Origin: Pseudobdellovibrionaceae bacterium
Lineage (GTDB): Bacteria > Bdellovibrionota > Bdellovibrionia > Bdellovibrionales > UBA1609
NCBI GenBank assembly: GCA_043757545.1
Contig: JAYVPG010000118.1
Coordinates: 17,286-81,285 of the forward strand
Length of the DNA stretch: 64,000 bases
Reading direction: 5' to 3'
This document shows positions 3,311-46,072 of this stretch, one piece after another; the stretch's first letter is position 1; each line of letters opens with the position of its first letter. Both the position numbers and the translations under genes were made by a program. The notes below the pieces were generated by a model that did no database searches, had not been told where the DNA came from, and worked only from the letters and a program-made list of their open reading frames with translations.

Positions 3311-3784
3311 ATGAGTTTTAAAATTACGCCGAAGCCCGAAGGGCCAAAGCTCGTTATCGAAATCGCGGGGAATGTCGACGAGGACGCCGGATTCCAGCCT
3401 CCAGATTTAGGTGCCTCTAGTGCGGTTGTGCTAGATCTTGACGGAGTCACGGCGATTAATTCAGTCGGTATACGCGAATGGATCAAGTGGGTGAAGGGCA
3501 TGCCTGCGAGCATTCAATTGAGCGTGCGCCGTTGTCCTAAAATCATTGTTGACCAAATTAATATGGTCGCTGGATTTTTGCCAACAGGCACAAAGGTTGA
3601 GAGTTTCTACGTCCCTTATTATGCCGATTCAACCGGCAGCGAGAAAATGGTGCTTTTTCAATCCGGTAAAGAATTTGACGGTGGGAAATTCAGCTTTCCC
3701 TCTGAAATTAAGGATGATTCCGGTGAGGTGATGGAGATGGACGTTATCGAAGCAAAATATTTTAAATTTCTGACGAATGGCTAA
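3311..3784 (+). CDS. STAS-domain protein (anti-anti-sigma-like)
   Basis: IAGNVDE...VLDLDGVTAINSVGI with conserved phosphoacceptor Ser; G-rich RBS before ATG 3311. Confidence 0.75.
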   Translation: MSFKITPKPEGPKLVIEIAGNVDEDAGFQPPDLGASSAVVLDLDGVTAINSVGIREWIKWVKGMPASIQLSVRRCPKIIVDQINMVAGFLPTGTKVESFYVPYYADSTGSEKMVLFQSGKEFDGGKFSFPSEIKDDSGEVMEMDVIEAKYFKFLTNG

Positions 3785-30585: not shown

Positions 30586-31526
30586 CAAGTCCAATGGACA
30601 ATAAAAAGCGTAGAATTTTAATCGTCGATGATGACGATACCTCACGTGATTTGGTGGGCAAGGCGCTCGAATATGAGGGTTATCAAGTTCGCCAAGCTGA
30701 GAATGGTTTGCTCGGCATCGGCGTGATGAACGAATGGCATCCGCACTTGATTTTGCTCGATATGAATATGCCTGGGATGAATGGCTTGGATACTTTGTCG
30801 CGCCTGCGTGTGCGCGATGAATATGTATCCGTGATGTTTGTTTCGGCCAATTCTAAAATCGAAGACGTTGTAAGGGGCCTAGACGGCGGTGCGGACGATT
30901 ACATTTGTAAACCGTTTGTGGTCAGTGAACTTCTCTCACGCGTGCGCAGTCAATTGCGCATTAAAGATTTGAACGACAATTTAAAACGCGCCAATGACCG
31001 CTTGAAAGAGCTTGTGGATATTGACGATCTTACGGGCTTGTTTAATATGCGCTCGCTGTATAAAAAACTCGACTTCGAGTTGGATCGTGCCCGCCGTTAC
31101 AATCGCTCAGTCGCCGTGATGATGATGGATCTGGACTTCTTCAAAAAGGTCAACGATGACCACGATCATTTGTTTGGCAGCTTTGTCATCAAACAGGTCG
31201 GAAAAATTATTCACGACAATATCCGCAAAGTGGATTTTGCCGCTCGTTACGGAGGCGATGAATATTTAGTCGTGCTTACCGAAATCGGTCAGGACGGGGC
31301 GAATACGTTTGCCAATCGCTTGCGTTCAAAAATTGAAGAGTCGGTTTTTCAAAATGATCTTCATAAGATTAAGCTCACCGCGAGTATCGGTCTGGCCCTC
31401 GCCAATCCCAACAATATGGAAGTCGACGCAAGAACCTTGGTTCGTTACGCGGATCGTGCGCTCTACCAGGCGAAAGAATCGGGCCGCAATCGCGTAGAAA
31501 TTTTCGATTTTAAAACGGTTAAGTAG
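30582..31526 (+). CDS. REC-GGDEF dinucleotide cyclase with Hypr (GacA-type) Ser signature
   Basis: REC domain; DLTGLFN, DLDFFKKVND.HDHLFGS, RKVD I-site, ARYGGDEY. Confidence 0.85.
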   Translation: MTSPMDNKKRRILIVDDDDTSRDLVGKALEYEGYQVRQAENGLLGIGVMNEWHPHLILLDMNMPGMNGLDTLSRLRVRDEYVSVMFVSANSKIEDVVRGLDGGADDYICKPFVVSELLSRVRSQLRIKDLNDNLKRANDRLKELVDIDDLTGLFNMRSLYKKLDFELDRARRYNRSVAVMMMDLDFFKKVNDDHDHLFGSFVIKQVGKIIHDNIRKVDFAARYGGDEYLVVLTEIGQDGANTFANRLRSKIEESVFQNDLHKIKLTASIGLALANPNNMEVDARTLVRYADRALYQAKESGRNRVEIFDFKTVK

Positions 31527-31588
31527 AATCGACCGGCCGGAAATTTTACTACCACTTACAATGAAGGTTCTAAGGAGTTATAACCGCT

Positions 31589-31894
31589 ATGAATAAACTG
31601 TTACCGCCTCGATGGGGCGAGATTATCAAAGTCTCAGTGAAATACCTAAGAGTGTTCTTCCCCCAAATTATGTTGGTCACGGTTATTATTTCCACGCCAA
31701 TCGTCGTGCATTTTTTTGGTATTGTCAGTGTCTTCAATCCGAAGACAGGGATGCTTTTTGTCACTGCGACTTGCTTGTCGCTTAAAACCGATTTCGATGG
31801 GTATCTGCATTCTATTTGTTCTATGTTTAATCCCAGTTCACTTGATTTTAACGGTGGCTTGCATGATGGCAATATTTGGAAAATAAACCACTAG
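31589..31894 (+). CDS. Small hypothetical membrane protein, possibly frameshifted
   Basis: AAGGAG upstream, hydrophobic segment; a more hydrophobic C-terminus lies in another frame ending at 31886. Confidence 0.35.
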   Translation: MNKLLPPRWGEIIKVSVKYLRVFFPQIMLVTVIISTPIVVHFFGIVSVFNPKTGMLFVTATCLSLKTDFDGYLHSICSMFNPSSLDFNGGLHDGNIWKINH

Positions 31895-31933
31895 ATTGGT
31901 GCAGATCGCCTGGGTGCAAACTCTAGCTCGAGA

Positions 31934-32236
31934 TTAAAATCCTGAGACTTTCTTCGCAGCGGCCCTCTCCAGCAATTCGTGAATCAAAGTTTGATAAGGC
32001 TTGTGCTGTTTGGAAGCCAATTTTCTCAGGCGTTCAAGAAGTTTTGGATCAATACGAATAGCGATTAGCTGTTTGGCATTACCAGTGACCGGGCGGCCAA
32101 CTCTCCTGGCCCGCTTCAGCTCCTCATCAGTAGATTCGGGGATATCTGAAAAATCGATCTCACGATCCTTCATAAGCTTTGCGCTCTTTGCGGCTCGCTT
32201 TCCTTGCGCTGATGATACGGATTGTTTCTTTGCCAT
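31934..32236 (-). CDS. brnA: BrnA-family antitoxin (RHH)
   Basis: IDFSDIPE, GRP..AKQLIAIRIDP, KPYQTLIHELL. Confidence 0.85.
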   Translation of the reverse strand: MAKKQSVSSAQGKRAAKSAKLMKDREIDFSDIPESTDEELKRARRVGRPVTGNAKQLIAIRIDPKLLERLRKLASKQHKPYQTLIHELLERAAAKKVSGF

Positions 32237-32444
32237 TTTTTAATCTCCTGGTTGTATAAACCACCAATAAAAGTCTGCTCTGAATGGAGAGCCCAAGACG
32301 CTTGATTCTGGGTTCACGTTGGGAATGGTCAGAATCTTCCCAATCTAACCCCTCTGGATCAGCAAATACCGTGGACGCCTCCTCAAATGGGACTTCATGC
32401 TTTTCATAGTTGCTGATTGCCTTTTGAGTGTCCCAAGAGAACAT
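32160..32444 (-). CDS. brnT: BrnT-family RNase toxin
   Basis: FSWD..K..N..KH.V.FEEA..VF.DP, HS..E.R, IRIISARKASRKERKAY. Confidence 0.9.
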   Translation of the reverse strand: MFSWDTQKAISNYEKHEVPFEEASTVFADPEGLDWEDSDHSQREPRIKRLGLSIQSRLLLVVYTTRRLKNGKETIRIISARKASRKERKAYEGS

Positions 32445-32451
32445 GCATTAA

Positions 32452-32480
32452 TGTATATACGATAATTCTGAACTAATCAA
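32452..32480 (-). promoter_or_regulatory. Putative sigma70 promoter of brnTA with palindromic operator
   Basis: Minus strand TTGATT-N17-TATACA; palindrome GTATATAC (32453-32460) overlaps the -10. Confidence 0.5.
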
Positions 32481-32567
32481 GCCTTTTTTGGTATTACTAA
32501 AGACGAAGATTGACACTCACCTTAGATTAAGATTGCGCGGGCGCCAGGACCGTCTCAGCCGCAATCG

Positions 32568-32583
32568 TGGCATCAGACTTGCT
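32568..32583 (+). promoter_or_regulatory. Sigma54 (-24/-12) promoter
   Basis: TGGCAT-CAGAC-TTGCT, exact GG-N10-GC spacing, ~80 nt upstream of ORF 32662. Confidence 0.7.
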
Positions 32584-32661
32584 TAGAACCTTGATTACAT
32601 AGGTCCTACAGATAGCCAGTTGACTCTAAAAGAGTTTCAACTCCACAGGAAGTGTAAATAG

Positions 32662-35600
32662 ATGCGACAAAGAAGTAAAATATATTGGTTCGCCCTCATT
32701 CTTGCTTTTGCCGGGCAAACGGCTATGGCCGCTTCGAAAAAGAACCCCACAAAGGCATCATGTGAGAAATTGCTCACGTCGCAATCCGAATTGGACTTTG
32801 CTTTCGCGGTTCAGGCTTTAGCGGGTCCCGACATCAAAGAGTTAGTGAATCGCATAACCTCTGGCCAAATTCATTTTTCTTCGGAAAGATGGAAAAGCCT
32901 TCTCTTGTTAGATTCTAAATTAAAAGAGTCCAAGCTAATTTATTCAATTGCAACTTTTCAAGACCAGCTCAATCCCATCGACGTAGTCGAAATGAAAATT
33001 CTGGCATCCCATTCTGAACACCGCCTGACCTATAGCCACCGCGATTTTGAAAGTGACCTCAAAAGAATTAAATTCAAAGACCTTTCAATGGGTTCCTTCA
33101 CTGTTATTATGACTGAAGCCGTCGGAAGATCCGAAGTCTCAGAGACAATCAAATCCCTCAAGGTTCCCGAAGACAAGATGATCGAGTTCCTGATTTCATT
33201 CTTGGCGCAAGACTCGGAATTCGACGAGCTTGCAAATCCCACGCTAGCTGCCGACCCTACCCAGTGGCCGATGCGCCGTGGGAAACCGGCGACATCCAAG
33301 AATTATAAAAATAATTTACGCCGCTTGATCTCAACGGGCCCTTTCGATCAGTTGAATATCAGAAGGGTTGAAAACAGGGCAAAACTTGCAATGGTTGCGT
33401 GCTACTTTTTTCCCGATATCGCCCGTGAAGCACTTTTACGAGCTCCTAAAGATGAAGATGCCAAGACCACACAAACAGAGTGGAAAGAGGCGATGGCAGC
33501 ACTTGACAGGCCTAGCTACCTCAAATCTCTGGCGTGGCTACTCGCAAAGGGGGGCGATGGCGAAAGAGAATTGAAACTGGTACTCGATCTACCCGCTCCA
33601 GCTCTTTCACATACGGACCTATTAACCTTTTGGGTCAACATCCTCTCTGATCAAATAGGAGATGGATGGAGTCTTGAATCTGTCTCCAGCAGATCCCTTT
33701 ACAGCTACAAGGGCTACGAAATATTATCTCTCAAAGATAGACGGGAAATATTGATTCGGTTTCTGAATCAAATACCTGCGTCCACTTTTTCAGGTCCCGC
33801 CTACGGCAGAAATAATAGGCTGACATCGATGGAAAATTTTTTTACTCAATGGTTAAACGTTCGGCCTCTGTCAATGGCTGCTGCGACCGCCGGCCTAACT
33901 GCCACGCTCATGGCCAAGGCACCAGACTATATTGTTGAATCGACCCTAGGTTTGCAATTGGGTGACCTCATGAAATTGCATCTTTTAAGTGAAGACGGCA
34001 AGCCCGGCCTGCAAGAGGAGCTCAGGTCCTTTGCAAAGCAGTATCCGAGCCTGCTTCCACCAACAATTGTAGAAACGTTTTGGGACAAAGCTTTAGACGT
34101 CGCCATCGTTCGCAAATTCTTTCGCTATTACACGACTCATCTACCTCGCCGCCACGGCGATGAAGCAACCGTAGCATCGTCTTTTATCCCTGAAACCTCA
34201 CTGCAGTTAATGTGTGAGATCGTTGGATGGCAAAAAAACTGCGCCGCCATTAAACAAAGCAAAATATATGACAATCCGGGTACGTTTTATTCCATTCTTT
34301 TTGACCTACAGTCCCGTTTTAACGATCCGATATTTGCAGACGTAGAATTCGAACCAACAGCATTCGACAGCAAAGAGCACCTTTTTGATTTTTTAAATTC
34401 CCTGCGCAATATTCTCAATCTGCACTTAAGTTCAAGGCGAGATTCGGATTCCGGCGACGACGAGAGTACGATCGGCTCAACCATGAGCACGGCGGACTGG
34501 AAAAATTTTTTAGTCCGACAGGGGATAGACCGGTCGATCTCTGATAAAAATATTGAGTCCCTCACCCAAAAAATTAACCAAGAAATTTTGGCTAAGGTGA
34601 ATGGGATTTTTACTGATACTGATACTGATAATGCTTCACAAAAAAAATCTAAGTCTCGTGCCGGGGGCCCTTCGGTAGTGCTAACTACCGAAAATCTACA
34701 AAAGCTACTGAACGAGTGGGGCAATCTTGAGTCAATCACAACCCTAGTATCCCGTCTTTCTGGTTCCAAAAGTGCCACCTGGAATCGTGAAATTCCAGTT
34801 CTTAAAGAAGTATTTCAGCAATCTGTGATGGGAACATTTGCCCAATATAAATTTGAGTCGGCAGAAGCAAAGAACCAACTTGAGGGGCTTAGCAAAAAAC
34901 AAGTCGACGCTTGGAAAGAAAATAGATACCTACTGACCAAGGCAAGCGGAGGCACCCAAGACCAAAGTGATCTGCGCGATAATTTTGCGAAGATCGTTGC
35001 AACTAATTTAATTCCACATTCTGAAGCGGTAAAGGCCCATGATGCAAATCCAGGCATGCCGTTTTCTGATAGCCTCGGCTTGGACTCGTTGTTGAGTGAA
35101 ATTCAAGCGCAAGTGAATCAGGGCGACCCGGCAAAACTAATTTCGAAAATCATGACGGATCAAAGCCCAAAACTAAATGATAAAGAAACCTCTCTACTCT
35201 TGGCGCGGCTTTTTAAAAATGTGGTCGCAAAGTTAGGTAAAGTCGACGCCGTTGAGGCCGCTGAGCTTCGCACTTTGGCGCGTATCGGTTTGGGCTTAGT
35301 TCAGCAGCAACAGCTGGAGGTTGAAGCCAGTGATAGAACACAGCTTCAGTCAGATTTTAAATCGCTCATCAAGATATTCATGACGGAGCTTGCCGTGGCT
35401 AGAAAAAGTTCTCTCATATTTTCGGTACTGTCCTCAGACCCAGTTTTAATGTTAACCATTGGTGATTTGGTCGATACCACATCTTGCCAAAACTATCGCA
35501 CTGGCGGAATGATTCAAACCCTGCTTGGCTACGTCATTGACGCAAACGTAAGGGCACTTGCGAGCTTTGAGATAGGTATGGGTCAGTTTGCGAATCAAAA

Positions 35601-36024
35601 TGACTTTCACCAGTTATACCAGGCATTGTCTCAGGGCGTGCCCGTGAATACGGAATGGAATGGCAACAATCGAACCGCCGTATTCTCATGGAGCGACGCC
35701 GGCGCGAGACAGAGTGTATCAACGCACCCCCTGGGACATGCCTATTTGCGACAAATAGTTCGCATTGGCAACACCGTCGATGAAGACGGATCGACTAAAA
35801 TCGGGACCTTACTCGAGCGAGAGTATTTGCAAAATAATTCAGAATTGGCATCCATGCGCGAAAATCATCAAGCTATTTTTGCGCAACTGAATAGTGAGCT
35901 TGGAGCTTACAACCATGGCACTATCACCTTCAGGGAGACGAGAAACCCGGGCGGCGTTTACTCGGATGCAGGTCGCGGAATTCAAAATCGTGAGTTCTGC
36001 GTGGAAGTCTCAAGTGACAAATAG
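32662..36024 (+). CDS. Large exported hypothetical protein (1120 aa)
   Basis: Long ORF, Sec-type signal peptide ending AMA, mostly helical body, conserved-looking C-terminal domain (IGD..TSCQNY..G, LGYVID, RQIVRI, LEREY, GVYSD). Confidence 0.85.
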   Translation: MRQRSKIYWFALILAFAGQTAMAASKKNPTKASCEKLLTSQSELDFAFAVQALAGPDIKELVNRITSGQIHFSSERWKSLLLLDSKLKESKLIYSIATFQDQLNPIDVVEMKILASHSEHRLTYSHRDFESDLKRIKFKDLSMGSFTVIMTEAVGRSEVSETIKSLKVPEDKMIEFLISFLAQDSEFDELANPTLAADPTQWPMRRGKPATSKNYKNNLRRLISTGPFDQLNIRRVENRAKLAMVACYFFPDIAREALLRAPKDEDAKTTQTEWKEAMAALDRPSYLKSLAWLLAKGGDGERELKLVLDLPAPALSHTDLLTFWVNILSDQIGDGWSLESVSSRSLYSYKGYEILSLKDRREILIRFLNQIPASTFSGPAYGRNNRLTSMENFFTQWLNVRPLSMAAATAGLTATLMAKAPDYIVESTLGLQLGDLMKLHLLSEDGKPGLQEELRSFAKQYPSLLPPTIVETFWDKALDVAIVRKFFRYYTTHLPRRHGDEATVASSFIPETSLQLMCEIVGWQKNCAAIKQSKIYDNPGTFYSILFDLQSRFNDPIFADVEFEPTAFDSKEHLFDFLNSLRNILNLHLSSRRDSDSGDDESTIGSTMSTADWKNFLVRQGIDRSISDKNIESLTQKINQEILAKVNGIFTDTDTDNASQKKSKSRAGGPSVVLTTENLQKLLNEWGNLESITTLVSRLSGSKSATWNREIPVLKEVFQQSVMGTFAQYKFESAEAKNQLEGLSKKQVDAWKENRYLLTKASGGTQDQSDLRDNFAKIVATNLIPHSEAVKAHDANPGMPFSDSLGLDSLLSEIQAQVNQGDPAKLISKIMTDQSPKLNDKETSLLLARLFKNVVAKLGKVDAVEAAELRTLARIGLGLVQQQQLEVEASDRTQLQSDFKSLIKIFMTELAVARKSSLIFSVLSSDPVLMLTIGDLVDTTSCQNYRTGGMIQTLLGYVIDANVRALASFEIGMGQFANQNDFHQLYQALSQGVPVNTEWNGNNRTAVFSWSDAGARQSVSTHPLGHAYLRQIVRIGNTVDEDGSTKIGTLLEREYLQNNSELASMRENHQAIFAQLNSELGAYNHGTITFRETRNPGGVYSDAGRGIQNREFCVEVSSDK

Positions 36025-36042
36025 AAAAAAACTGGAGTTCGC

Positions 36043-39000
36043 ATGAAGAATTTATTTATTCAATTTGTACTATTGGCGACGGTAGGAGTCGGGACTCAGA
36101 GCTCGGCAGCTTCATTCCAGAGCAGATTGGAAGTCCATGGGAGCAATGCTGCCAAGATAATCCTCACCGTTGCCGAATTTGTTGGCGATGCTGAAGTTGA
36201 GGCTATCAAAAGTGAAACCTCTCATCGAATTGAGGGGCGCGATTCTGAGGCCAATGACATTTTGGATACGTTGGTTCGGATGAAGTCGCGAATGCCGGTT
36301 CTAGTTGCGCCGCCCGGGGTTGGCAAAACGGCAATCGTACAAAGGGCAATTCAAAAGACTATTACACGAGATTACCCTGACTCACCGGCATTCCAAGAGG
36401 GGTTAGCTAAAGCTGAGTGGATTCAAATTACACCGGGCCGTATTATGAAGATTGCCAAATCAACCAACGATATATCTAAAGCAAAGGCCATTGAAGATTT
36501 TTTTGATGCGGTCATTTCGATTGAAGCAGAGCTCAAGGTCAAAGTGATTGTCTTTATGGATGAAGTTCACAATTTAGATCCAAGTCAGGTCGAGGCGCTT
36601 TTGCCATATCTCGAATCTCAAGGCAAGAGTGTTCGCTTTGTGGGTGCTACAAATGCAAACAAGCTGACGCTTGCTTTTGGCGACAATGAAGCATTTTTAC
36701 GCAGGATGAGGACTATAGCTGTTCAAGAATTTGATGACGAGACGATACTAAATTTGATCGACAAATCGTGGATTCCCACTATTCAGAGCAAGTACGCTGT
36801 CCAATTTTCTGATGAAGCCAAACGTAGGTTTATTGCGTTTGGGACTATATTAAACCCTGATGGAGGAAAGTTTGATGCGGCAATTAAAGTTGCGCAAGAC
36901 TTTGCAATTTGGAATCAGCGAAACAAGAAGGAAAAAATTCTGTCCCAAGAAAATCTATTCGATTTTTTTAAGGAAAAAACGGGGTTTCCTGTGGATCCTT
37001 TCAACCGTTCTGAACTTCGTCAATATCTTGACTCAATCCAAAAGACCATAACCGCAAAGTTAGTTGGCCAGCCCCGTATGATTCAAGATGCCCTCGATAT
37101 ATTTCGGGATATCATTCTTGGCACAAAAAAAGAGATGGGCGTTCTTGCTATCGTTGGGCCCTCCGGAACTGGAAAAACTGAATTGGGCAAGATGATCGCC
37201 AAATATGGTTTTAACAATCCACGGTCGTTTCTAAAAATCGATGCTACGGAATACAGCGGAGAAAACGACGGAGCATTTAATAAGCTGTTTGGCGCAGCTA
37301 GTGGACTTGTAACATCCAATAAACGTGTAGGCATTTTACCTGAATATTTTGATGACCCCTCGCAGGGAAAATACGGCGGAGTCCTTCTAATTGACGAAGC
37401 GGAGCGCGCGTCGCCCAACTTCTGGGAAAGACTTATGGAGTTTTTTGAAGAAGGCACTTTTCGCGGTGGCGATGGAAAATTGCGCAAAGCGCGTCGCCAT
37501 ATCGTAATCTTGACAAGCAATCGCGGCGATAAAATTCTTTTTCCTGAAGAAATGCAAAAGCTCGAGAAAAGCCGGGTCATTGATTACGCCAACTCCGTTC
37601 AAGAATCTGATATCAAGAAGCTATTTCAGATAAAAACGAGCGGCAAAGACGATTTTCAAATTCCGGTGCCGGTATTGAATCGCATTGACCGGTTTACGAT
37701 TTCCGTACCTCTTCACGCCGACGACGTTGCCGAGATCTCTACCAATTTCGCGCTCAATGAAACGCTTGCGATTGAGTCCCTTTTCCAAATGTCTCTTAAG
37801 CTCGACTCCAAAATTGTGGGCCGAATTGGCAAAACTTCGTTTGACCCACAGTATGGCGCAAGACCTACGGAGCGCGCTTTGGCTACGTTTTTTAATCGGA
37901 TCAAGGACAAGATTTTGTCGTCATCTGAGGCAATTAAAGACCAAGTGCTCACGGTTGACGAAGAAGTCGTCTCGGCAGATGACGCGAATGCAGTTGGTAG
38001 GATCGCAGGAAACGTTCTTTTTAAACTTAAACTTCCAAGACTGATTCTTGATGAGCCCTTGCTCGGTAGCGAGCTCGCGGAAAAAATAAAGCAATTTGAT
38101 GAAGTCGTTGCCAAAATGATTATTGGTCAAGATGACGCCGTAAAAAGAGTGCGCGAAGCAGTAATCTCGTTTCTGTCTACACCAAAAAAAATGAGAGGAA
38201 CTTTTAGTGTCATGTTGCTAGGGCCAACTGGTGTTGGAAAAACCGAATTGGGCAAAGCGGTCGCGATGGCATTGTTTGGCGGGTCTAGTCAGGCGGAGAT
38301 CATTCCCATGGGCGAAATCTTGCGTGAGTCAGACTTTACAACAATCATTGGCTCGTCGCCAGGTTACGTTGGGTCATTGGAAGTGCGCAGGCTCGAGAAA
38401 GCCCTCATGAGCCATCCCGACGGCGGGGTAATCGTGCTCGATGAATTTAGCAATATGGGCGGCAAAGACCCGACAGTAAAAGAAGAACTCATCATGCGGC
38501 TATATAATTTTTTTGAAGAGGGGCGATGGACCTCGAGCGCAACCGGCACCACCTATGACTTGACCAAATATTTGTTTGTGCTGACAGGTAACGATGGCGA
38601 AGAGCTCTATCGTGGCATTAGCTCTGACCAGATTCGTTTGGAAACTTGGAAGAGGAACAATGGGCCAGCCGTTTTGCATAAAATGCTTGTTAGCAAGGGT
38701 GTGCCAGAAGCATTTCTTGGACGTCAGGCAGACATTATAGACATGAAGCCCCTTATGCGTAGCGAAGTAAAAGGAGTCGCAGATAAACTGATTGAACCGA
38801 TTGTGCGGCGATTTTCAAACCTAGGCTACAAAGTCGAGGTCTCAGAGAACTTCAACGAACAGTTCGGCAAGATGTTTTTTACCCAAGATAAAGGAGCTCG
38901 GTCGCTTCGCTCAATAGCGCAAGTTAAATTAAACGCTCTAATCTCCGAGGCCGTTAGTATTTCCAAAGCCTCAGGCAAAACGGCAAATGAAGGCAGATGG

Positions 39001-39807
39001 ATTAAAATTGAAATTTTGCACAACCTCGATTCGAAACCCTACATTGAGGACCCTCAATTTTTGTCCAAGGTAGAAATCACAGTGCAGGTTGGGCAGAAAT
39101 CTTTAACTGAAATTAGTCTCTCCCGAGACGTCACACAGTTTGCCGCCATCGACAAGAAGCTAAGTAAAAAGCAAGCTCTTGCGACGGCCTATCACGAAGC
39201 CGGGCATGCAGTTATGAACGACTTTGAGGTTACCGGATCAAAACTTAAATACGTTACTGTATTAGGGTCCGAGGGAAATCTCGGTTTTGCTCTTTACGAA
39301 GATGCTAAAGATCATAATTATAGTCCCACAGATGAAGCCAAGCTCAAGATTTTACTGAGTCGTTCACTTGGAGGCCAAGTGGCTATGGTCATGGGCGGTC
39401 ACGCTCCCGACGCTGGATGGGGTGGAGACCTTTTAACGGCCAGGAAACTTGCACAAAAATACGTTTCTGAATGGTCCCTAAATAAGGAATTATTAGGCAT
39501 GGTCATCGGCAAGGACGACGCACCGGTATTCAGCCAAGCACAAATCACCCAAATTTCTGCGAGCTCGGAACACCTTCTAACACAATCAATTGATTACACG
39601 ATTGAAACTCTAGCGAAGAGATGGGACTTAATCGAGGCTGTGAAATCTAAGCTGATGGAGGACGGCTACGTGACTGAAGATCAATTTGATCAGATGAAGC
39701 GAAATTGGATTGAAAGCGACTTGGGAGAAAACCCCAGCGCCAAGCCGATGCGAAGCGACTGTGCAGAGTTGTTGATTTCAAGGCCAAAAAGTGGAAATCG
39801 CAGGTGA
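36043..39807 (+). CDS. Signal-peptide-bearing triple AAA+ (Clp-like) ATPase fused to an M41 (FtsH-like) zinc protease domain
   Basis: Walker A APPGVGKT, GPSGTGKT, GPTGVGKT; Walker B FMDEVH, LIDEAE, VLDEFS; TAYHEAGHA..LGG..GGDL. Confidence 0.85.
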   Translation: MKNLFIQFVLLATVGVGTQSSAASFQSRLEVHGSNAAKIILTVAEFVGDAEVEAIKSETSHRIEGRDSEANDILDTLVRMKSRMPVLVAPPGVGKTAIVQRAIQKTITRDYPDSPAFQEGLAKAEWIQITPGRIMKIAKSTNDISKAKAIEDFFDAVISIEAELKVKVIVFMDEVHNLDPSQVEALLPYLESQGKSVRFVGATNANKLTLAFGDNEAFLRRMRTIAVQEFDDETILNLIDKSWIPTIQSKYAVQFSDEAKRRFIAFGTILNPDGGKFDAAIKVAQDFAIWNQRNKKEKILSQENLFDFFKEKTGFPVDPFNRSELRQYLDSIQKTITAKLVGQPRMIQDALDIFRDIILGTKKEMGVLAIVGPSGTGKTELGKMIAKYGFNNPRSFLKIDATEYSGENDGAFNKLFGAASGLVTSNKRVGILPEYFDDPSQGKYGGVLLIDEAERASPNFWERLMEFFEEGTFRGGDGKLRKARRHIVILTSNRGDKILFPEEMQKLEKSRVIDYANSVQESDIKKLFQIKTSGKDDFQIPVPVLNRIDRFTISVPLHADDVAEISTNFALNETLAIESLFQMSLKLDSKIVGRIGKTSFDPQYGARPTERALATFFNRIKDKILSSSEAIKDQVLTVDEEVVSADDANAVGRIAGNVLFKLKLPRLILDEPLLGSELAEKIKQFDEVVAKMIIGQDDAVKRVREAVISFLSTPKKMRGTFSVMLLGPTGVGKTELGKAVAMALFGGSSQAEIIPMGEILRESDFTTIIGSSPGYVGSLEVRRLEKALMSHPDGGVIVLDEFSNMGGKDPTVKEELIMRLYNFFEEGRWTSSATGTTYDLTKYLFVLTGNDGEELYRGISSDQIRLETWKRNNGPAVLHKMLVSKGVPEAFLGRQADIIDMKPLMRSEVKGVADKLIEPIVRRFSNLGYKVEVSENFNEQFGKMFFTQDKGARSLRSIAQVKLNALISEAVSISKASGKTANEGRWIKIEILHNLDSKPYIEDPQFLSKVEITVQVGQKSLTEISLSRDVTQFAAIDKKLSKKQALATAYHEAGHAVMNDFEVTGSKLKYVTVLGSEGNLGFALYEDAKDHNYSPTDEAKLKILLSRSLGGQVAMVMGGHAPDAGWGGDLLTARKLAQKYVSEWSLNKELLGMVIGKDDAPVFSQAQITQISASSEHLLTQSIDYTIETLAKRWDLIEAVKSKLMEDGYVTEDQFDQMKRNWIESDLGENPSAKPMRSDCAELLISRPKSGNRR

Positions 39808-39855
39808 TTTATATTTGTCACGCAGCCGTCGAATCAAATAGTGGTCGAGAAAATC

Positions 39856-39925
39856 AATATCACGGGGGCGCTCCAGCGCTTCCCTGGCCCTAAGCGATAT
39901 GTTCGCTTTGAAAAGAGCGTCCCCG
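39856..39925. repeat. Structured repeat element A (three-way-junction hairpin), inverted homolog of element B
   Basis: CGGGGGCGCTC/GAGCGTCCCCG outer stem with inner CAG/CTG and AAGCGA/TCGCTT hairpins. Confidence 0.65.
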
Positions 39926-40036
39926 CCATATCCGTTTTAAGCCAGGTTCGATAGGCGTCGACTTTTATTCACTCAACGTACTTGGCCGGTCATCGCTTGC
40001 CCAAAACCACATTTTTAATGTAAGTCTTAAATTCCT

Positions 40037-40363
40037 ATGAAGCGAAAAAAAGCAGCGCCTCAAAAATCGAAACCTCCGCGTAAGTCAGCTGATATTCCAG
40101 TGACGAGCAAGATGCTTGATGAGGCCCGCTTTGAACTCAAGCATGAAATTCAATCCTTTCGGCATGAAGTGAAGGGTGAATTCAGAGATGTGAGGTCGGC
40201 CATATCTAAAGTTCAAGCCGACGTCGAAAAAGTGCTGGCGGCGGTCCATCGAGTGGGTCTTCTTGTGGAAGAGCAAAATGCCAGAAACAAATATGTCCTT
40301 GATGGCTACACCAGCCTCTCGGATCGCATTGATAAGGTTGAAAAACAGACCAAAGACGTCTAA
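40037..40363 (+). CDS. Small coiled-coil hypothetical protein
   Basis: Basic N-terminus followed by heptad pattern LKHEIQSFRHEVKGEFRDVRSAISKVQADVEKV. Confidence 0.7.
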   Translation: MKRKKAAPQKSKPPRKSADIPVTSKMLDEARFELKHEIQSFRHEVKGEFRDVRSAISKVQADVEKVLAAVHRVGLLVEEQNARNKYVLDGYTSLSDRIDKVEKQTKDV

Positions 40364-40427
40364 GGCCGCCTTGCCTCGGGTGAAGCCGCACTCGCCCCAA
40401 ATGCTTCGCTCATCTGACCGAGGCCAT

Positions 40428-40564
40428 GGGGACGCTCCATACTGCCTCTAGAGAGGCCAACGGGGACCATATGTAGGTATTCGCGACGGGTCCCCAGCCA
40501 CTCCAACGACCGAGGGTTTCAGATCGCTTAGGCCGAGGGTATCTACATTGGCCCCCGTAATATT
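40428..40564. repeat. Structured repeat element B, inverted homolog of element A with ~70-nt insertion
   Basis: GGGGACGCTC, ATCGCTTAGG and GCCCCCGTAATATT are reverse complements of three colinear blocks in 39856-39924. Confidence 0.65.
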
Positions 40565-41033
40565 CCTTTCCTATACAGCTGTAGTTTACCGAGCGAAGGT
40601 AACCCACCTCAACTACGTTTGTTTTTACAACTTTTGGTTACTCGAACTTTCGAAAAATCCTCTCCGACGGCGGTCATCCATTTTGAGTTATGAAGCGAGC
40701 CCGGAAAAAATACGCGCGAGCTCAGTACCAAAAATGAAAAAAATCGATTGGTCGCATGAGTGCTGGATTTTATTCGGGCGGGCCATTCGGCCTGCAGACA
40801 TGATATCTCCCAACTCCCAGCGGCCCCAAAATCGTGCGCGCACAGTTCAGGGCACCCCAGATTGGGTGCGCGTTCATGACTGCTCAAACAGCCCGAAACG
40901 CCCAAAACCTGTAGTCAATCGACCACTTAAGTTCGGTGACAATTCATGGCCAAAGTGTTGGAAAATTAACAGGCGAAAAAATAATAATTTTTACTTACAA
41001 TGCCAACTGTTAGTCCAATCTTGAGGGTGAAAT

Positions 41034-42125
41034 ATGTACATGAAAATATTTATTGCTATCGCTGTGTTGCAGATCTCGACGCCGGCACTGGCCGTCAAAA
41101 GTACTGTAAATGGCTCTACTCCAAGTAAGGCTTGTGAGGTGGTTCTAACAGCTGTAAGGCAGGATCTCAGGCAGACTTCAGAGATCACAACGAATAAACC
41201 CGAAATAGCAAAGATTCTTGGAAAGGACGTCTCTTCTATATACTCCACGTCGACCTCCCTCAATCAACGAGCTGCTTTTGTTGATACGCGCGAAGGAGAA
41301 TCTTATTTTGTAGATATCAAAAATAAAGTCTCACTGCGTGTCGATTGGAATATTACCTCGAACGTCAAGGCCGGTAATAGCGAGTGGAGTCAAGATGGCA
41401 GGCGCGTCTTACTAAAGGGATTCTCAGCCCGCATGATTGATATTTCCAATTTTCTAAATGGCCAGGATAGCGTTAACGCCACAGTTCCTCTGACAGAGAT
41501 GGATCCCTTCTATCGCACTGGAAACTATACCCCCGAATCGACGTACGTTAATAAATTAGCGCTCTCGAAAAATGGCAAAATGGTGTTTATAGGCACTGAC
41601 CCCGTGATCCTGAAGTATCCTCTCGATTCACTCGTTCCAGAGGAAACTGTCAGACTCGATAACACATTTATAATTGATGGTCGCCCATGCGAAATGAACT
41701 CTTTAGATTATATTTTTAAGAAATTTTCTGACGACAGTCGTAGGTTGGCTATTGTGTCAAAATTTTATGATCGCCGAGTTAATGAGACCATGATTGTCGC
41801 TCTTATTTACGACACTCTATCAGGGCGCCTTTTGGTAGCCCAAAAATTGACTACTGTATTAATACCGAAACTCAATGATCGAAGCCAGTTGCAGTCCGTT
41901 GGGGCTCAATTGAAGCGTGACTTGGGATGGAACTACGCTGCGATGTCCAGAGAACAACATTTAAAAAATGTTAAGATTGATTTTTCAAAGGAAAAACTGC
42001 GGATTACCTTAGAGTCACAAGACTTGATAGTCGGAGAGTACAGTCACAATGGGGCTACGGCATATGTGCCACAAATTCCTGGAGAGATCCAAAGAAGCCA
42101 GTATTCAATCGACTTGCCAAAATAA
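41034..42125 (+). CDS. Exported hypothetical protein with beta-propeller-like (WD40/PD40-type) repeats
   Basis: Signal peptide ending PALA; WSQDGRRVLL, LSKNGKMVFI, FSDDSRRLAI. Confidence 0.75.
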   Translation: MYMKIFIAIAVLQISTPALAVKSTVNGSTPSKACEVVLTAVRQDLRQTSEITTNKPEIAKILGKDVSSIYSTSTSLNQRAAFVDTREGESYFVDIKNKVSLRVDWNITSNVKAGNSEWSQDGRRVLLKGFSARMIDISNFLNGQDSVNATVPLTEMDPFYRTGNYTPESTYVNKLALSKNGKMVFIGTDPVILKYPLDSLVPEETVRLDNTFIIDGRPCEMNSLDYIFKKFSDDSRRLAIVSKFYDRRVNETMIVALIYDTLSGRLLVAQKLTTVLIPKLNDRSQLQSVGAQLKRDLGWNYAAMSREQHLKNVKIDFSKEKLRITLESQDLIVGEYSHNGATAYVPQIPGEIQRSQYSIDLPK

Positions 42126-42130
42126 ATTCT

Positions 42131-42480
42131 TTGATGATCATCGCGACCGAGCTCGCCAATCAGGTGAGCTTGGTTCTCGATAACAGCGGCGGGCGCCAAT
42201 GGCGCGCTTACCGGTTCGGGCCGCTGAATTCCCAGGGCTGCAACCGCTCGGATCACGGCGCAATCATGTGGCCGAGTGACCATGATGCCTACGCGTGGAC
42301 CCTAGACAAAACCAACCCCAAAATCGCCCCTCCAGCGCACTTGAAGTCAATGCCGCGAAATAGCGACGCCCATCGTTGGACATTTGATTTTTGCATCGGC
42401 TTTGATCTCGCCAACCTTCTTTTTAGTCTGAGCCAGCTGAGCCGACATTTCTTTTTTAAAAGTGGATTCACGTTCGCAGA
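42131..42480. pseudogene. Possible gene remnant(s)
   Basis: Open + frame with GC-rich third positions but no RBS; a short protein-like minus-strand frame at the right end. Confidence 0.2.
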
Positions 42481-42499
42481 CGATTTGGAAATGCAATTA

Positions 42500-42515
42500 T
42501 GGCGGAGTGTTTGCA
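42500..42515 (+). promoter_or_regulatory. Sigma54 (-24/-12) promoter
   Basis: TGGCGG-AGTGT-TTGCA, GG-N10-GC, just upstream of ATG 42528. Confidence 0.55.
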
Positions 42516-42527
42516 ATAGTCAGCGGA

Positions 42528-44315
42528 ATGCTCCAGATATTCCCTCGTTTGGCCTATAGGGCCGGATTTTTGCCACTATTTGTCGTCTTGGGGACGATCT
42601 TTGCTCCATCCTTCGTGCACGCGACGAAGCCGTTGGCACCCGATACAGAGCTTGCGGTCTATAGGTTTTACTCGAGCGCGAACAAGGCCTCGGCACTCGT
42701 TGCTGCCTATAAACTGGACGGTCAACTATTCGCACCGAAGCAAGTCGGGAAGTTAACATTAAGGGGTCTTGAAGCCAAAGGTTGTGAAGATGCACTGCTT
42801 GAGAACTTGGAGAATTTCGCCCTTGGAATGATGAAGTCGGTTGAATATTTGAGCGACGATGAGTTTGCCAATCAAGTTGCAACCATGCGCCGGCTAGAGC
42901 CAGGACAGGTTACGTTTATAGAATCCACGCGACCGGTTCCTAAGGATGAGGTTCAGGCACATCCTGAACTCTATCCCCTGGGGCGGAGAAGTCCGCGTCC
43001 GGATATCGAGCGACCGAACGCGGTACATATTCGCCAGGCCTCACTTTGGGTGGTCTCTGGACAGGTCATGTATCCACACCCTCGTGAGATTTTTGAGAAA
43101 GTTCATCCAAATTCGCTGCCGACCGATTTGCATTTCCGCGGTCACATGGGCATCGCGCCTGAAAGCGAATCTTTAGGTCCGCGGGTAATTACGGTTTCGA
43201 TCAACGCTATGCCTTGGCAGCAAGACGATGAATTGTGGAAGAGCGGAAAAATGCCGAGATCTGAGTTCGGATACGCGCAGCTCGATCGCAAAAAATATCC
43301 ACTTGTATGGGAGTTCGGCCGTATGGCTCAGGTCGAGCCCGAACAAATGTATGCCGTTCAACTCGCGGCAATGACGGTTGTACAAGAGGAGCTTGAGGTT
43401 AGCCTTCAGGCCGACCCTAGTGAGGCCTATATTTTTGCACATGCACTCGATCGCCCGCGCATGCGACTGTTTCGCCTAATGGGATTCGAACCCTTAGATC
43501 CGGACTGCACCGGCGAGAATGGGTGTATTATGGTCGCGGCATATGTGAAGTTGATAAAAAACTTTCCTCCTGGTGCGCTGTCTAAACGGGTGCAGGAGAT
43601 TCGTAAAATCTTTAATAACGGAATCGATAACCCGGAGGCGTTGAATATCTTGCGCCGAACACAGACGTACTTTCGTGCCGAATTGGACATGGTTTCAGAA
43701 GAGTTCGGCATCGAGCAGAAGTCGCCGATAGTCTTGCATGATTTTAGTCGGAGTTATGACCAGCTTTTGGGAATCACGGTTAAGCATTGGGGTCAAACAA
43801 CAGACGACGAGGCTCGCGCGGGTGCACGATGGCTCAAATCGATTCGCAACGATCATACGGCCAATAATTCTATTCGCGACAGCATTCCGGTTGAACCGTT
43901 TGTGGAATTGTTTTCTAAGGCCGACGTCGTTCGCCTAACCAACCTTGATCCGGCACTGATTCAAAATAAAAATTATTTTCCGTTGGTGCTTTTGGGCGCC
44001 TATCGATATTTGATCTCTCGCTATACTGAGCTCCACATCGAAAATCCTGTGGACCAAATGAAACGTATCGGTACTCAAATTGTTATTCAAACAACCAATC
44101 TTGCCGTCCTTCAGGCTGGAGTAGACTTGGGCGGAGTTCCGGGGCCACCGTTACCTGGCGCGGACGGGCGCAATCTCTATGTCGTATCCTTTAGCTTGGA
44201 AAGAATCGAAGCTCTTCAGGTTGAGCATGCGAACTTGAACAGGGCGGCCGAGCACGCACTCCAACAAGGTTTTTGGTTCTTTCGTAATATTGGCAGTTTA
44301 CCAATGAAATTTTGA
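42528..44315 (+). CDS. Exported hypothetical protein with a possible GNAT-like acyltransferase domain
   Basis: Signal peptide ending VHA; VWEFGRMA and YIFAHA...RLFRLMGF resemble GNAT motifs A/B. Confidence 0.7.
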   Translation: MLQIFPRLAYRAGFLPLFVVLGTIFAPSFVHATKPLAPDTELAVYRFYSSANKASALVAAYKLDGQLFAPKQVGKLTLRGLEAKGCEDALLENLENFALGMMKSVEYLSDDEFANQVATMRRLEPGQVTFIESTRPVPKDEVQAHPELYPLGRRSPRPDIERPNAVHIRQASLWVVSGQVMYPHPREIFEKVHPNSLPTDLHFRGHMGIAPESESLGPRVITVSINAMPWQQDDELWKSGKMPRSEFGYAQLDRKKYPLVWEFGRMAQVEPEQMYAVQLAAMTVVQEELEVSLQADPSEAYIFAHALDRPRMRLFRLMGFEPLDPDCTGENGCIMVAAYVKLIKNFPPGALSKRVQEIRKIFNNGIDNPEALNILRRTQTYFRAELDMVSEEFGIEQKSPIVLHDFSRSYDQLLGITVKHWGQTTDDEARAGARWLKSIRNDHTANNSIRDSIPVEPFVELFSKADVVRLTNLDPALIQNKNYFPLVLLGAYRYLISRYTELHIENPVDQMKRIGTQIVIQTTNLAVLQAGVDLGGVPGPPLPGADGRNLYVVSFSLERIEALQVEHANLNRAAEHALQQGFWFFRNIGSLPMKF

Positions 44316-44329
44316 CGCTGACCAATTCC

Positions 44330-46021
44330 CTAAATGCCGCCGGCGGCACCCTCGCCGCGCGCATCGAATGCACCTTCGAGTACTCCGCCGTCATTTAGGC
44401 GGACAGCGTAGACCTTGCCCATCCAGCCGGCTTCTTCAATCACATGACCGCGATCACGCAGCCCTTGTAGAATCTCAGGCGAAAAGCGTCGGGCATCGAC
44501 ATAAAGTTTCGTGGGTAGAAACTGATGGTGAACACGCGGTGTTTGCACGGCGACATCCACGTTTAAATTTTGCACGAGCACGCGATATAAAACCTGCAGT
44601 ACACTGCTGATGATGCGTGGGCCGCCGGGAGCCCCAAGACTCATGACGACCTTGTCATTCTTTTCGACGAGGGTAGGGCTCATGCTGCTTAGTGGGCGCT
44701 TTCCAGGTGCGACATTGTTGCCCTCGCCTTGGATAAGACCATACATATTGGCTTCGCCGGGCCGAGTGGTGAAGTCGTCCATTTCGTTATTGAGTGCGAT
44801 GTGAAAGCGATTGCTGACGACCGCACTTCCCCAATCCCCATTCAAGGTCACGGTAAATGCGGCGGCATGACCGTCGCTGTCGAGCACTGAGAAATGAGTG
44901 GTCTCTGTGCTTTCCTTTCCGACTGTCGATTCGTCGAGTGGTTTCAGCGCAACGACTTTTTTCGTGCTGATCGATTTAGCCATTTCATTTAAATAATTTT
45001 CGGAAGATAAAAGTTTGAGAGGATTTTTGTGAAAGTCCGGATCTCCGAGCAATGAACGGCCACGGAACGAACGCGCCTCTATCTCTGCGAGCATATGCAA
45101 TTCATCGATCGATAAAAATGCTTTCGATTTTAGATCCAGTTTTTCGATCAGCTTGAGTCCGGCCAAAATGACCACTCCACCTGAGCTCGGTGGTGGCATC
45201 AGATCAATTTTATAACCCGAAAATTCAGTCTGAATTGGTTCAAGCCAACGAACTTTGTAGTTTTTTAAATCCGCGCGAGTCATTTTGCCGCCAGATTCGC
45301 CAATCGTCTTTACTAAATCGTCGGCAACAGCACCCCCATAAAATCCGTCGACGCCATGGTCGCGAAACTCGATCAACGCTTTTGCAAGGGCTGGCTGTTT
45401 GAGTATTTCGCCAGCGACGTAGGAGGCTCCACCCGTTTTCATAAATGCCTTGCGCCCGCCCTCATTGAAACGTCCCTTTTCATCGTTGGTTCCATGCACC
45501 CATTCACCACTCAAGGGAAATCCATTTTGCGCAAGACGGATCGCATCGGCGAAGAGCAGCGGCCATTTCAACTTTCCGTATTTCTGATGAAGCGCCCATA
45601 GTCCCGCGGGCACGCCCGGAACTCCAACCGCGTGGCCACCGGTGATCGAAGCATCTTTGCCCAAGTTCCTGTAATAATCTTTGCCCATAGCTGCGGGCGC
45701 GACCTCGCGAAAATCGAGGGCTTGCGCGGGGCCGTCCATTTTCACCATCGCAAAGCCGCCACCGCCGAGTGCGGCGAAATAGGGACTTGTGACACTTAGG
45801 GTGAGGGCCACCGCCACCGTGACATCGACGACATTTCCACCTTGGGCAGCTATCTTACGTCCGGTTTCAACTGCGAGTGGGCTAGGGGCAGCGATCATGA
45901 TTTTGTGCCCCTCCGCAGGAATTGCGAAGGAGGCCGATGAATAAACAAATATTAGAAGGGATAAAATTCCGTGATTTCGTAAGGAATACCCGACTCTTTG
46001 ATAAAGTATAAGTTTTTTCAT
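44330..46021 (-). CDS. ggt: Gamma-glutamyltranspeptidase
   Basis: GGNVVD, LGGGGF, DFRE.AP, PPPSSGG, ETTHFS (nucleophile Thr), LNNEMDDF, KRPLSSMSP, GAPGGPRI. Confidence 0.93.
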   Translation of the reverse strand: MKKLILYQRVGYSLRNHGILSLLIFVYSSASFAIPAEGHKIMIAAPSPLAVETGRKIAAQGGNVVDVTVAVALTLSVTSPYFAALGGGGFAMVKMDGPAQALDFREVAPAAMGKDYYRNLGKDASITGGHAVGVPGVPAGLWALHQKYGKLKWPLLFADAIRLAQNGFPLSGEWVHGTNDEKGRFNEGGRKAFMKTGGASYVAGEILKQPALAKALIEFRDHGVDGFYGGAVADDLVKTIGESGGKMTRADLKNYKVRWLEPIQTEFSGYKIDLMPPPSSGGVVILAGLKLIEKLDLKSKAFLSIDELHMLAEIEARSFRGRSLLGDPDFHKNPLKLLSSENYLNEMAKSISTKKVVALKPLDESTVGKESTETTHFSVLDSDGHAAAFTVTLNGDWGSAVVSNRFHIALNNEMDDFTTRPGEANMYGLIQGEGNNVAPGKRPLSSMSPTLVEKNDKVVMSLGAPGGPRIISSVLQVLYRVLVQNLNVDVAVQTPRVHHQFLPTKLYVDARRFSPEILQGLRDRGHVIEEAGWMGKVYAVRLNDGGVLEGAFDARGEGAAGGI

Positions 46022-46072
46022 AGCTCGGGACTCTATCATTCACGATTAACCTATGCTAATTCCTCAAGCCAT

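Follow-up and report, generated by a model that had tools for sequence, protein, structure and literature searches.

A portable C-x-x-hydrophobic-L tag on cysteine-poor exported proteins of Bdellovibrionales and its possible role in thiol coupling

Introduction

Why do four unrelated exported proteins encoded within 12 kb of a Bdellovibrionales genome carry the same short cysteine (Cys) motif? The stretch analysed here, called the window, comprises 64,000 nucleotides of contig JAYVPG010000118.1 of a Pseudobdellovibrionaceae bacterium. An initial annotation, made from the letters of the window alone, described the motif as C-(E/A)-x-(L/V/A)-L and proposed that it is a portable mini-helix which acts as a second-step export, prey-delivery or attachment tag. 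We found that the four sites are very probably copies of a real, selected and portable tag module, which has the look of a so far undescribed handle by which predatory enzymes would be coupled or delivered.

We know of no account of how Bdellovibrio-like predators choose and deliver secreted proteins into their prey. Full-text literature searches found no description of this motif and no paper that describes a predator signal beyond Sec; in the available part of PMC12622784, only Sec signals are mentioned. The tag is of practical interest as it provides a concrete and mutable handle (one Cys and one Leu) with which candidate effectors could be listed, a partner fished and delivery tested. Furthermore, it flags an odd class of proteins, namely Sec-exported enzymes that need ATP or acyl-CoA.

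The four sites and their carrier proteins

The open reading frame (ORF) translations agree with the initial annotation for all four sites, which are listed below with the proteins that carry them. Signal peptides and genes were called with our own heuristics and not with SignalP.

32662..36024, + strand: 1120-residue exported protein (ORF translation, signal-peptide-like N-terminus; no Pfam or NCBIfam family)
32761..32775, + strand: N-terminal tag CEKLL with Cys34, 11 residues past the predicted cut between AMA and A
36043..39807, + strand: 1254-residue exported AAA+/M41 protein (Pfam domains, signal-peptide-like N-terminus)
39760..39774, + strand: C-terminal tag CAELL with Cys1240, the 15th residue from the end, behind an unconserved linker
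41034..42125, + strand: 363-residue exported orphan protein (ORF, signal-peptide-like start; no Pfam or NCBIfam family)
41133..41147, + strand: N-terminal tag CEVVL with Cys34, 14 residues past the predicted cut between ALA and V
42462..44315, + strand: 617-residue exported protein with a weakly GNAT-like fold (ORF, structure model, Foldseek; no Pfam or NCBIfam family)
42783..42800, + strand: internal tag-like site CEDALL with Cys108, about 55 residues past the predicted cut between VHA and T, the first residue of helix 108-126

The four carriers have no BLASTP similarity to one another, as had been noted initially. PDB sequence searches, run for four tag carriers, gave 0 matches. A fifth match to the narrow pattern in the window (CEDVL at residue 179 of the product of 3784-5676) lies in a protein without a signal peptide and was taken as chance.

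The 1254-residue protein, hereafter the AAA-protease, is made up of three AAA modules of the ClpA/ClpB-like type fused to a peptidase M41 domain (Pfam AAA_2 1e-30, AAA 1e-24 and Peptidase_M41 7e-14), and Cys1240 is the sole Cys of the whole protein. Its NCBIfam scores were 237 bits for ClpB (cut-off 1232) and 70 bits for FtsH (cut-off 600), with ClpA also far below cut-off. Assignment to the FtsH or Clp equivalogs was rejected on these full-length scores and on the signal-peptide-like start, which is found in seven relatives as well. Judged by the domains present, the predicted activity is that of an AAA+ unfoldase-protease outside the named equivalogs. The presence of a Sec-type signal peptide on an ATP-driven unfoldase-protease, here and in the seven relatives, makes its export odd in itself.

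The initial annotation had placed the sites mostly in flexible terminal segments. This holds for the terminal linkers of the other three proteins, whereas in the AlphaFold2 (AF2) model of the 617-residue protein (predicted local distance difference test score, pLDDT, 77) Cys108 opens a 19-residue helix, 108-126, inside a folded domain. Foldseek matched this model to the acyltransferases FeeM (template modelling score, TM, 0.51 on the target), AtaT and NAT10, all of them weak matches. A C-terminal Phe was observed in 8 of the 11 proteins of this family (the window protein and L045-L054).

Conservation of the motif among homologues

Each window protein was searched in 40 related genomes. Seven full-length relatives of the AAA-protease were found there (26-35% identity), and all seven have a signal-peptide-like start together with a Cys 6-15 residues from the end that is followed by x-x-hydrophobic-L. 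Eight further relatives were found in a large protein set, some of them alphaproteobacterial entries named ClpA (Rhodoblastus acidophilus and Roseiarcus fermentans), and the tail is kept in seven of these. Across the family the last Cys lies 6-15 residues from the end in 16 of 17 proteins; 15 fit the strict pattern C-x-x-[LIVMFAY]-[LFMI] and one more has L at +4. When 11 of the C-terminal parts were aligned, the linker in front of the tag was observed to be unconserved and to vary from about 15 to more than 100 residues, with C and L(+4) nearly invariant. In the AF2 model of the AAA-protease C-terminus the M41 domain is confident and the linker of low confidence, while a short helix is predicted over the tag with modest confidence. 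A scan of genome contigs for the AAA-protease returned only distant Clp-like genes of Burkholderiales.

The pairing of the first two window genes, which are separated by a gap of 19 nucleotides, also recurs at a distance. On a high-GC, alphaproteobacteria-like metagenome contig (L138:6920-13831), a homologue of the 1120-residue protein (BLASTP 1e-48 over residues 444-1114) lies directly upstream of an AAA-protease homologue that ends with CARLL and six further residues. This pairing on a distant contig indicates that window 32662-39807 is an old two-gene module. Both proteins on the contig lack a clear signal peptide, and their start codons are uncertain.

In the 617-residue family, the Cys in front of LL-x3-Q-x-F-P-L is kept in 8 of 10 homologue ORFs, where it is often the sole Cys; one of the remaining ORFs lacks the Cys and the other is too divergent to judge. 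Two homologues of the 1120-residue protein have an intact N-terminus, and in both the signal peptide is followed by C-x-Q-L-F (CLQLF and CVQLF). The 363-residue protein has no relative in the 40 related genomes or in a set of 5.8 billion proteins, and a single distant relative, P0018 (26% identity), was found among 1.84 billion representatives. P0018 has a signal peptide followed by ES-CEDIA, so that the tag Cys is kept.

Seven other proteins with the motif near an end were then taken from the rest of the genome. Those with a C-terminal motif were a membrane-associated protein of 1262 residues, a HAD-like protein of 400 residues, a DUF7790 protein of 326 residues and an alpha/beta hydrolase, and those with an N-terminal motif were proteins of 579, 900 and 330 residues. 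Homologues of six of these families were inspected, only after the picking; the seventh pick, the C50 alpha/beta hydrolase, stands outside the homologue survey. For an unbiased choice, the last Cys, or the first Cys after the hydrophobic region, was taken in each protein and compared with the strict pattern. In the four C-terminal families the last Cys lies 6-19 residues from the end in 35 of 36 proteins, the remaining one being P0007, which lacks the tag Cys and has its last Cys 28 residues from the end. The strict pattern fits 32 of these proteins, and the three others that have the Cys still carry L at +4. The four N-terminal families gave 13 fits among 17 proteins, with one of the misses due to a Cys mis-picked within the signal peptide.

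Of the 53 pooled proteins, 44 have L and 4 have F at position +4, and position +3 is L in 28, I in 5, A in 5, F in 4 and V in 2. Position +1 is E in 16 and A in 12, and the commonest residue of any flanking column occurs at most 14 times. The core is C-x-x-hydrophobic-L, in which the Cys and a Leu (rarely Phe) at +4 are accompanied in most copies by a hydrophobic residue at +3. Of the motif as first proposed, the Cys, the Leu at +4 and usually the hydrophobic residue at +3 are conserved, whereas E or A at +1 is a flavour of this genome, the commonest choice and not a rule.

Portability, cysteine depletion and genome flavours

Among 24 carriers, 270 of 276 pairs were without BLASTP similarity. 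The same family can also bear the tag at opposite ends. For example, a 1056-residue protein of G034 carries an N-terminal tag and is 51% identical over about 500 residues to an 874-residue protein of G028 with a C-terminal tag, and the two contain a single Cys each. Island neighbours of AAA-protease genes have the tag Cys 5-22 residues from the end. The variable distance to either end agrees better with a binding motif than with a site of end processing.

Carriers were also observed to be strongly depleted in Cys. Beyond residue 45, 28 carriers have 54 Cys in 24,814 residues (0.22%) compared with 1.09% genome-wide, for which 270 would be expected; about half of the 54 are tag Cys, and many of the carriers have no other Cys. 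Some carriers in this set had been picked as single-Cys proteins, and the island neighbours and AAA-proteases had not been so picked.

The sequence of the tag varies with the genome in which it is found. In G028, five adjacent genes around the AAA-protease gene all have C-x-x-L-F, in G003 all seven tags have E at +1 (the C-E-x-L-L type), and in G034 an identical 9-residue tag is found on the AAA-protease tail and on the N-terminus of the next gene product. Several tags also lie near AAA-protease genes in G001. Tag islands were found in three genomes besides this one and in G020, which belongs to another genus of the same family. Some operon pairs combine one C-terminal and one N-terminal tag, as do the 1120-residue protein and the AAA-protease of the window, and the AAA-protease and the 1056-residue protein of G034. 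A further pair of this kind, adjacent in this genome (G000) and in four others, is the following.

G000:C133:885-4756 (also G005:C13, G011:C2, G001:C5 and G006:C61): exported operon of the HAD-like 400-residue protein (C-terminal tag) and the 900-residue protein (N-terminal tag), genes overlapping or abutting

Prediction of a complex between the tail of the G034 AAA-protease and the N-terminal part of the protein encoded next to it gave a score of 0.00, which counts neither for nor against binding.

Enrichment of the motif at protein ends

The tests in this genome used 2820 ORF proteins from a crude greedy caller. The narrow pattern C[EA]x[LVA]L has 53 matches, compared with 37 expected by composition and 34.9 +/- 6.0 in 200 within-protein shuffles. 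Nine of the 53 fall in the last 15 residues (2.5 expected, p 8e-4), and for C[EA]xLL the count there is 7 of 19 (0.9 expected). Enrichment in the first 40 mature and last 30 residues of predicted signal-peptide proteins, the check that had been suggested with the initial annotation, was observed. These terminal zones have 13 matches in 58,220 residues (2.23 per 10,000), compared with 8 in 213,170 (0.38 per 10,000, p 7e-5) for the interiors of the same proteins and 8 in 117,110 (0.68 per 10,000, p 0.007) for the corresponding zones of other proteins. With the four seeds taken out, 10 matches are left, one of them a true lipobox, and the p values are 9e-4 against interiors and 0.04 against other proteins.

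Looser patterns with context filters gave mixed results. The offset profile of all terminal Cys of signal-peptide proteins has no signal at +3 or +4 (5.1-5.5% vs 5.2-5.7%); this set is dominated by Cys-rich proteins with a C-terminal Cys at -2 to -6. In G000 signal-peptide proteins, Cys occurs at 2 to 3.5 times background at positions 2-6 from the C-terminus, which is not the case in other proteins. These residues, mostly in Cys-rich proteins, look like C-terminal disulfide staples that are separate from the tag.

The clearest test makes no use of the motif. It covers exported proteins of at least 250 residues that have exactly one non-lipobox Cys, taken from this genome and from 1.6 Mb of G020. 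The Cys was near an end in 28 of 70 proteins, with 15.4 expected. Leu occupies +4 behind 17 of these 28 terminal Cys (background 10%, p 3e-11) and behind 4 of the 42 interior ones (Fisher 8e-6), and no other offset stands out, the next best reaching 6. Taken alone, this genome gave weak signals only in the same test.

In G020 the narrow pattern is not enriched, with only 1 match in the terminal zones of signal-peptide proteins in the 1.6 Mb. When a non-hydrophobic context is required, the form C-x-x-L-[LF] shows an enrichment of 6.1 times (p 4e-4) directly behind signal peptides and of 3.5 times (p 0.06) close to C-termini. Most of the G020 tags carry S, G, N or R at +1, and the tags occur in small islands of four and three adjacent genes. 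Taken together, homologues, occurrence at either end, Cys depletion and the motif-agnostic enrichment bear out the initial proposal of a portable Cys mini-helix as regards its portability and its predicted short helix.

Comparison with known signals

The closest curated signals are of the MYXO-CTERM type. The available part of 10.1101/2023.06.07.544157 (Haft) describes four Cys-bearing C-terminal signals, each with a membrane helix and an Arg cluster and tied to Rce1-like proteases, and the Cys of these signals is thought to be chemically modified. As far as this text and that of PMC11980579 go, MYXO-CTERM-type signals are similar to the tag in having an invariant Cys, unrelated exported carriers and lineage-specific forms; they are tripartite (Cys motif, membrane helix and Arg cluster), strictly C-terminal and of the G-C-G type. 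The tag, in contrast, has no membrane helix and no required basic cluster, has its conserved residues behind the Cys, and is also found behind signal peptides and once inside a domain. Its core is followed by only 1-23 mostly polar residues with no membrane segment, and the tails end in K/R-rich stretches in some proteins and in GGEN, DGEAR, Q or LMN in others. In an NCBIfam scan of the full proteins, with the short tails not scanned alone, no family was found for three window proteins, and the best 25 of 50 families for the AAA-protease were all ATPase or protease models. Membership of the MYXO-CTERM type (TIGR03901 and relatives) was rejected for lack of a membrane segment and, for the full proteins, of a curated-model match.

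A covalent modification of the Cys, by a lipid or another group, could nevertheless anchor the carriers to a membrane or surface through a position-independent recognition motif. We consider this quite unlikely. The invariant and usually sole Cys followed by hydrophobic residues would suit such a route, as would the basic residues that end several tails and loosely recall sorting signals built from Cys, hydrophobic and basic parts. The presumed modification of the known C-terminal signals (10.1101/2023.06.07.544157, as far as available) and the one Rce1-like CPBP gene of this genome point the same way. However, there is no membrane helix behind the Cys and its distance to the end is not fixed. 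CPBP genes are common, being present in 11 of 14 control genomes, and no ICMT gene was found in this genome, which is 90.6% complete, although these two gene searches carry little information. Furthermore, in the N-terminal copies the Cys follows the hydrophobic region at a distance of 4-35 residues and has polar or charged residues in front of it, which excludes these copies as Lgt/Lsp substrates.

The last point also separates the tag from the lipoprotein lipobox, L-[AS]-[GA]-C, which is handled by Lgt and LspA and likewise places a Cys shortly behind the signal peptide of exported proteins. Of the 17 N-terminal copies, 16 have their first Cys at +4 to +35 past the hydrophobic region, and in the remaining one (+2) the Cys was mis-picked inside the signal peptide. 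The three residues in front of the Cys (-3 to -1) read, for example, K-A-S, S-K-A, S-P-E, M-D-E or S-E-L; unlike in the lipobox, what precedes the Cys is polar or charged (E, D, T, P, K) and the hydrophobic residues follow it, and half of the copies are C-terminal (36 copies in four families). The lipobox was ruled out by the Cys distance, the polar residues before the Cys and the C-terminal copies, in agreement with the initial annotation.

In the eukaryotic CaaX box, which some bacterial effectors use in host cells, the Cys is exactly fourth from the end. The tag has a similar order of a Cys and then aliphatic residues near the C-terminus, and one Rce1-like gene is present here. It is not a CaaX box because its distance to the end is not fixed, with the Cys 5-28 residues from the end or at the N-terminus; in addition, ICMT was not found and the prey are bacteria.

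Thioredoxin and DsbA have a CXXC motif at a helix N-terminus, a position that lowers the thiol pKa and gives a reactive thiolate. In the 617-residue model the tag Cys similarly sits in the first turn of a helix, and the tag may be viewed as C-x-x-C with the second Cys replaced. Unlike CXXC it has no thioredoxin fold and no second Cys, and is a free peptide on a linker. A thioredoxin-type CXXC was rejected, as 44 of the 53 proteins have L, I, A, F or V at +3 and no Pfam thioredoxin domain was found in the scanned carriers.

In architecture, the tag appears to come nearest to the cargo-loading peptides of encapsulins and bacterial microcompartments, which are cytoplasmic and have no invariant Cys. 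They too are short helices on poorly conserved linkers at either terminus of unrelated enzymes, are portable and co-evolve with their receptor. The tag differs in that its carriers have signal peptides and no known shell or receptor.

Carrier domains and site of action

The Pfam domains found on carriers are AAA+ with M41 (twice in G001), an ABC1 atypical kinase, an FGE-sulfatase-like domain, a circularly permuted ATP-grasp (in two genomes), alpha/beta hydrolases and DUF7790; the remaining carriers matched no family. The HAD-like protein is so called from a DxDGT motif that was spotted by eye. Sec-exported carriers with domains of the ATP or acyl-CoA type would work only where such cofactors exist, and their site of action would be the prey cytoplasm or a bdelloplast that receives leaked prey contents. 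For the second-step export, prey-delivery or attachment role that was initially put forward, this argument is circumstantial only.

Another G001 protein of 1177 residues (L149:5572-9105) has a signal-peptide-like start together with DUF444 and SpoVR-like domains. In other bacteria these two domains belong to members of a cytoplasmic operon.

Proposed function of the tag

The spacing of the motif brings the Cys and the residues at +3 and +4 to the same side of a short helix. A variable linker bears the tag, either just behind a Sec-type signal peptide or 5-28 residues before the C-terminus, in exported Bdellovibrionales proteins that are otherwise poor in Cys and whose genes tend to lie in islands such as window 32.6-44.3 kb. 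In the mechanism that we propose, the exposed thiol would serve as a coupling handle and form a disulfide or another thiol-linked bond after Sec export, with the partner being either a shared protein or the tag of a neighbouring gene product. Such a bond might tie the enzymes to a carrier or to each other and reopen in a reducing compartment, for example the prey cytoplasm. Thiol chemistry is suggested by the conservation of an unpaired Cys in flexible exported segments, and in the 617-residue model also by its position at the start of a helix, which would lower the thiol pKa. Coupling of this kind, rather than one of the other routes, is put forward tentatively, with somewhat less than an even chance of being correct, and both the bond and its partner are putative.

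A more specific form of thiol coupling would make the tag a position-independent cargo mark of prey-delivered enzymes, which are coupled by a reversible disulfide to a translocator or carrier in a modular version of AB-toxin logic. We regard this form as doubtful. In AB toxins, an interchain disulfide ties the enzyme to the translocation chain and is reduced in the target cytosol. The analogy would lie in an enzyme and a large partner encoded side by side, with one exposed Cys each and otherwise poor in Cys; in AB toxins, however, the bond usually forms within one precursor or a fixed pair, whereas the tag is a portable motif of many families. If this form were true, the prey-delivered set would consist of ATP-driven unfoldase-proteases, kinases, ATP-grasp proteins and acyl-CoA enzymes, with each genome tuning its own flavour, and a motif of five residues would read out the prey-delivered effectors from sequence alone.

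Alternatively, the tag might be a second-step transport signal, that is, a short linear motif read by a translocator of the envelope or prey membrane, or by a loader of vesicles or carriers. It would mark Sec-exported proteins that leave the predator or enter the prey, and the Cys would serve for recognition or a transient link only. This is unlikely in our view, although several features suit it. The motif acts at either end on flexible linkers and is portable among families, the genome flavours fit co-evolution with one receptor per genome, and the strong Cys depletion suits proteins that are unfolded for passage. Moreover, the AAA+, ABC1 kinase, ATP-grasp and GNAT-like carriers could work only with the contents of the prey cytoplasm. 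On the other hand, the islands showed no candidate receptor, tag families are present in genomes that have none of the other island genes in common, and a purely non-covalent signal would not usually have an invariant Cys. In alphaproteobacteria-like AAA-protease homologues the tail is also kept, although no signal peptide can be recognised in them. This is the main result against reading the tag purely as an export signal, and against that part of the role proposed in the initial annotation.

The same homologues, as likely cytoplasmic members of a family in which the tail is ancestral, would suit a redox latch or regulatory tail. Here the Cys-helix would dock on its own protein or on the AAA-protease, which would keep the carrier inactive or marked until the redox state changes, and the shared motif would reflect a common regulator and not transport. 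AAA+ proteases recognise substrates via short terminal hydrophobic motifs on linkers, and many tag genes flank the AAA-protease gene. We nonetheless hold a latch to be very unlikely, since many genomes with tags yielded no AAA-protease homologue (the AAA-protease as a universal receptor was rejected for this reason), the carriers are enzymatically too diverse for one intramolecular latch to be likely, and the tail in the AF2 model is a free short helix that is undocked and of low confidence.

Several observations weigh against our proposal. No thiol-bond partner of the tag was found. A cytoplasmic version of the AAA-protease could hardly use a disulfide, and in one of the eight relatives from the large protein set the Cys is replaced by Arg. 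The tags of operon pairs are not generally identical, and a search for fused proteins of the HAD-like and 900-residue pair found none, which is weak evidence. In the 617-residue family, the motif begins a long helix of the modelled fold and may be structural there. Six of the eight surveyed families were chosen because the member in this genome carries the motif, and the counts are not independent as the related genomes are kin. As to enrichment, the looser C-x-x-[LIVMFA]-[LF] shows no excess across the proteome of this genome, and some tests give an enrichment of 2-3 times also in the terminal zones of proteins to which no signal peptide was assigned, as in the N-terminal zone of such proteins in G020 (3 times). 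The signal-peptide and gene calls are crude.

Some of these points would also suit the absence of any common function, with a Cys conserved family by family at the start of an amphipathic helix, and with resemblance and clustering as selection effects. The pattern is short, its loose version shows no proteome-wide excess, the families were picked by motif and the 617-residue site belongs to a folded helix. Such an explanation, already disfavoured, is scarcely probable given the motif-agnostic single-Cys test and the eight-fold Cys depletion of the carriers. It would also have to account for one family tagged at opposite ends, for flavours common to unrelated proteins of a genome, for conservation within otherwise unconserved linkers of variable length, and for islands in three further genomes and a second genus. 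Should the motif prove to be no more than a helix cap within each family, the islands of giant exported proteins poor in Cys would still make a useful catalogue.

Neighbouring genes in the window

Among the tag genes, an ORF of 108 residues at 40037-40363 encodes a lysine-rich, coiled-coil-like protein without a signal peptide or Cys, for which only weak sub-threshold Pfam matches were found. The last tag gene is adjoined by a gene for an exported gamma-glutamyltranspeptidase (44330-46039, - strand, Pfam 7e-143). This is a glutathione-handling enzyme, and its tie to thiol chemistry is possibly a coincidence.

Directly upstream of the tag-gene block, a BrnT toxin/BrnA antitoxin pair (31934-32444, - strand, Pfam 1e-24 and 3e-9) may form the border of an accessory island. 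The G+C content is 0.447-0.467 at window positions 30001-42000 compared with about 0.49-0.55 across most of the flanks, and this lower value fits an accessory or acquired island.

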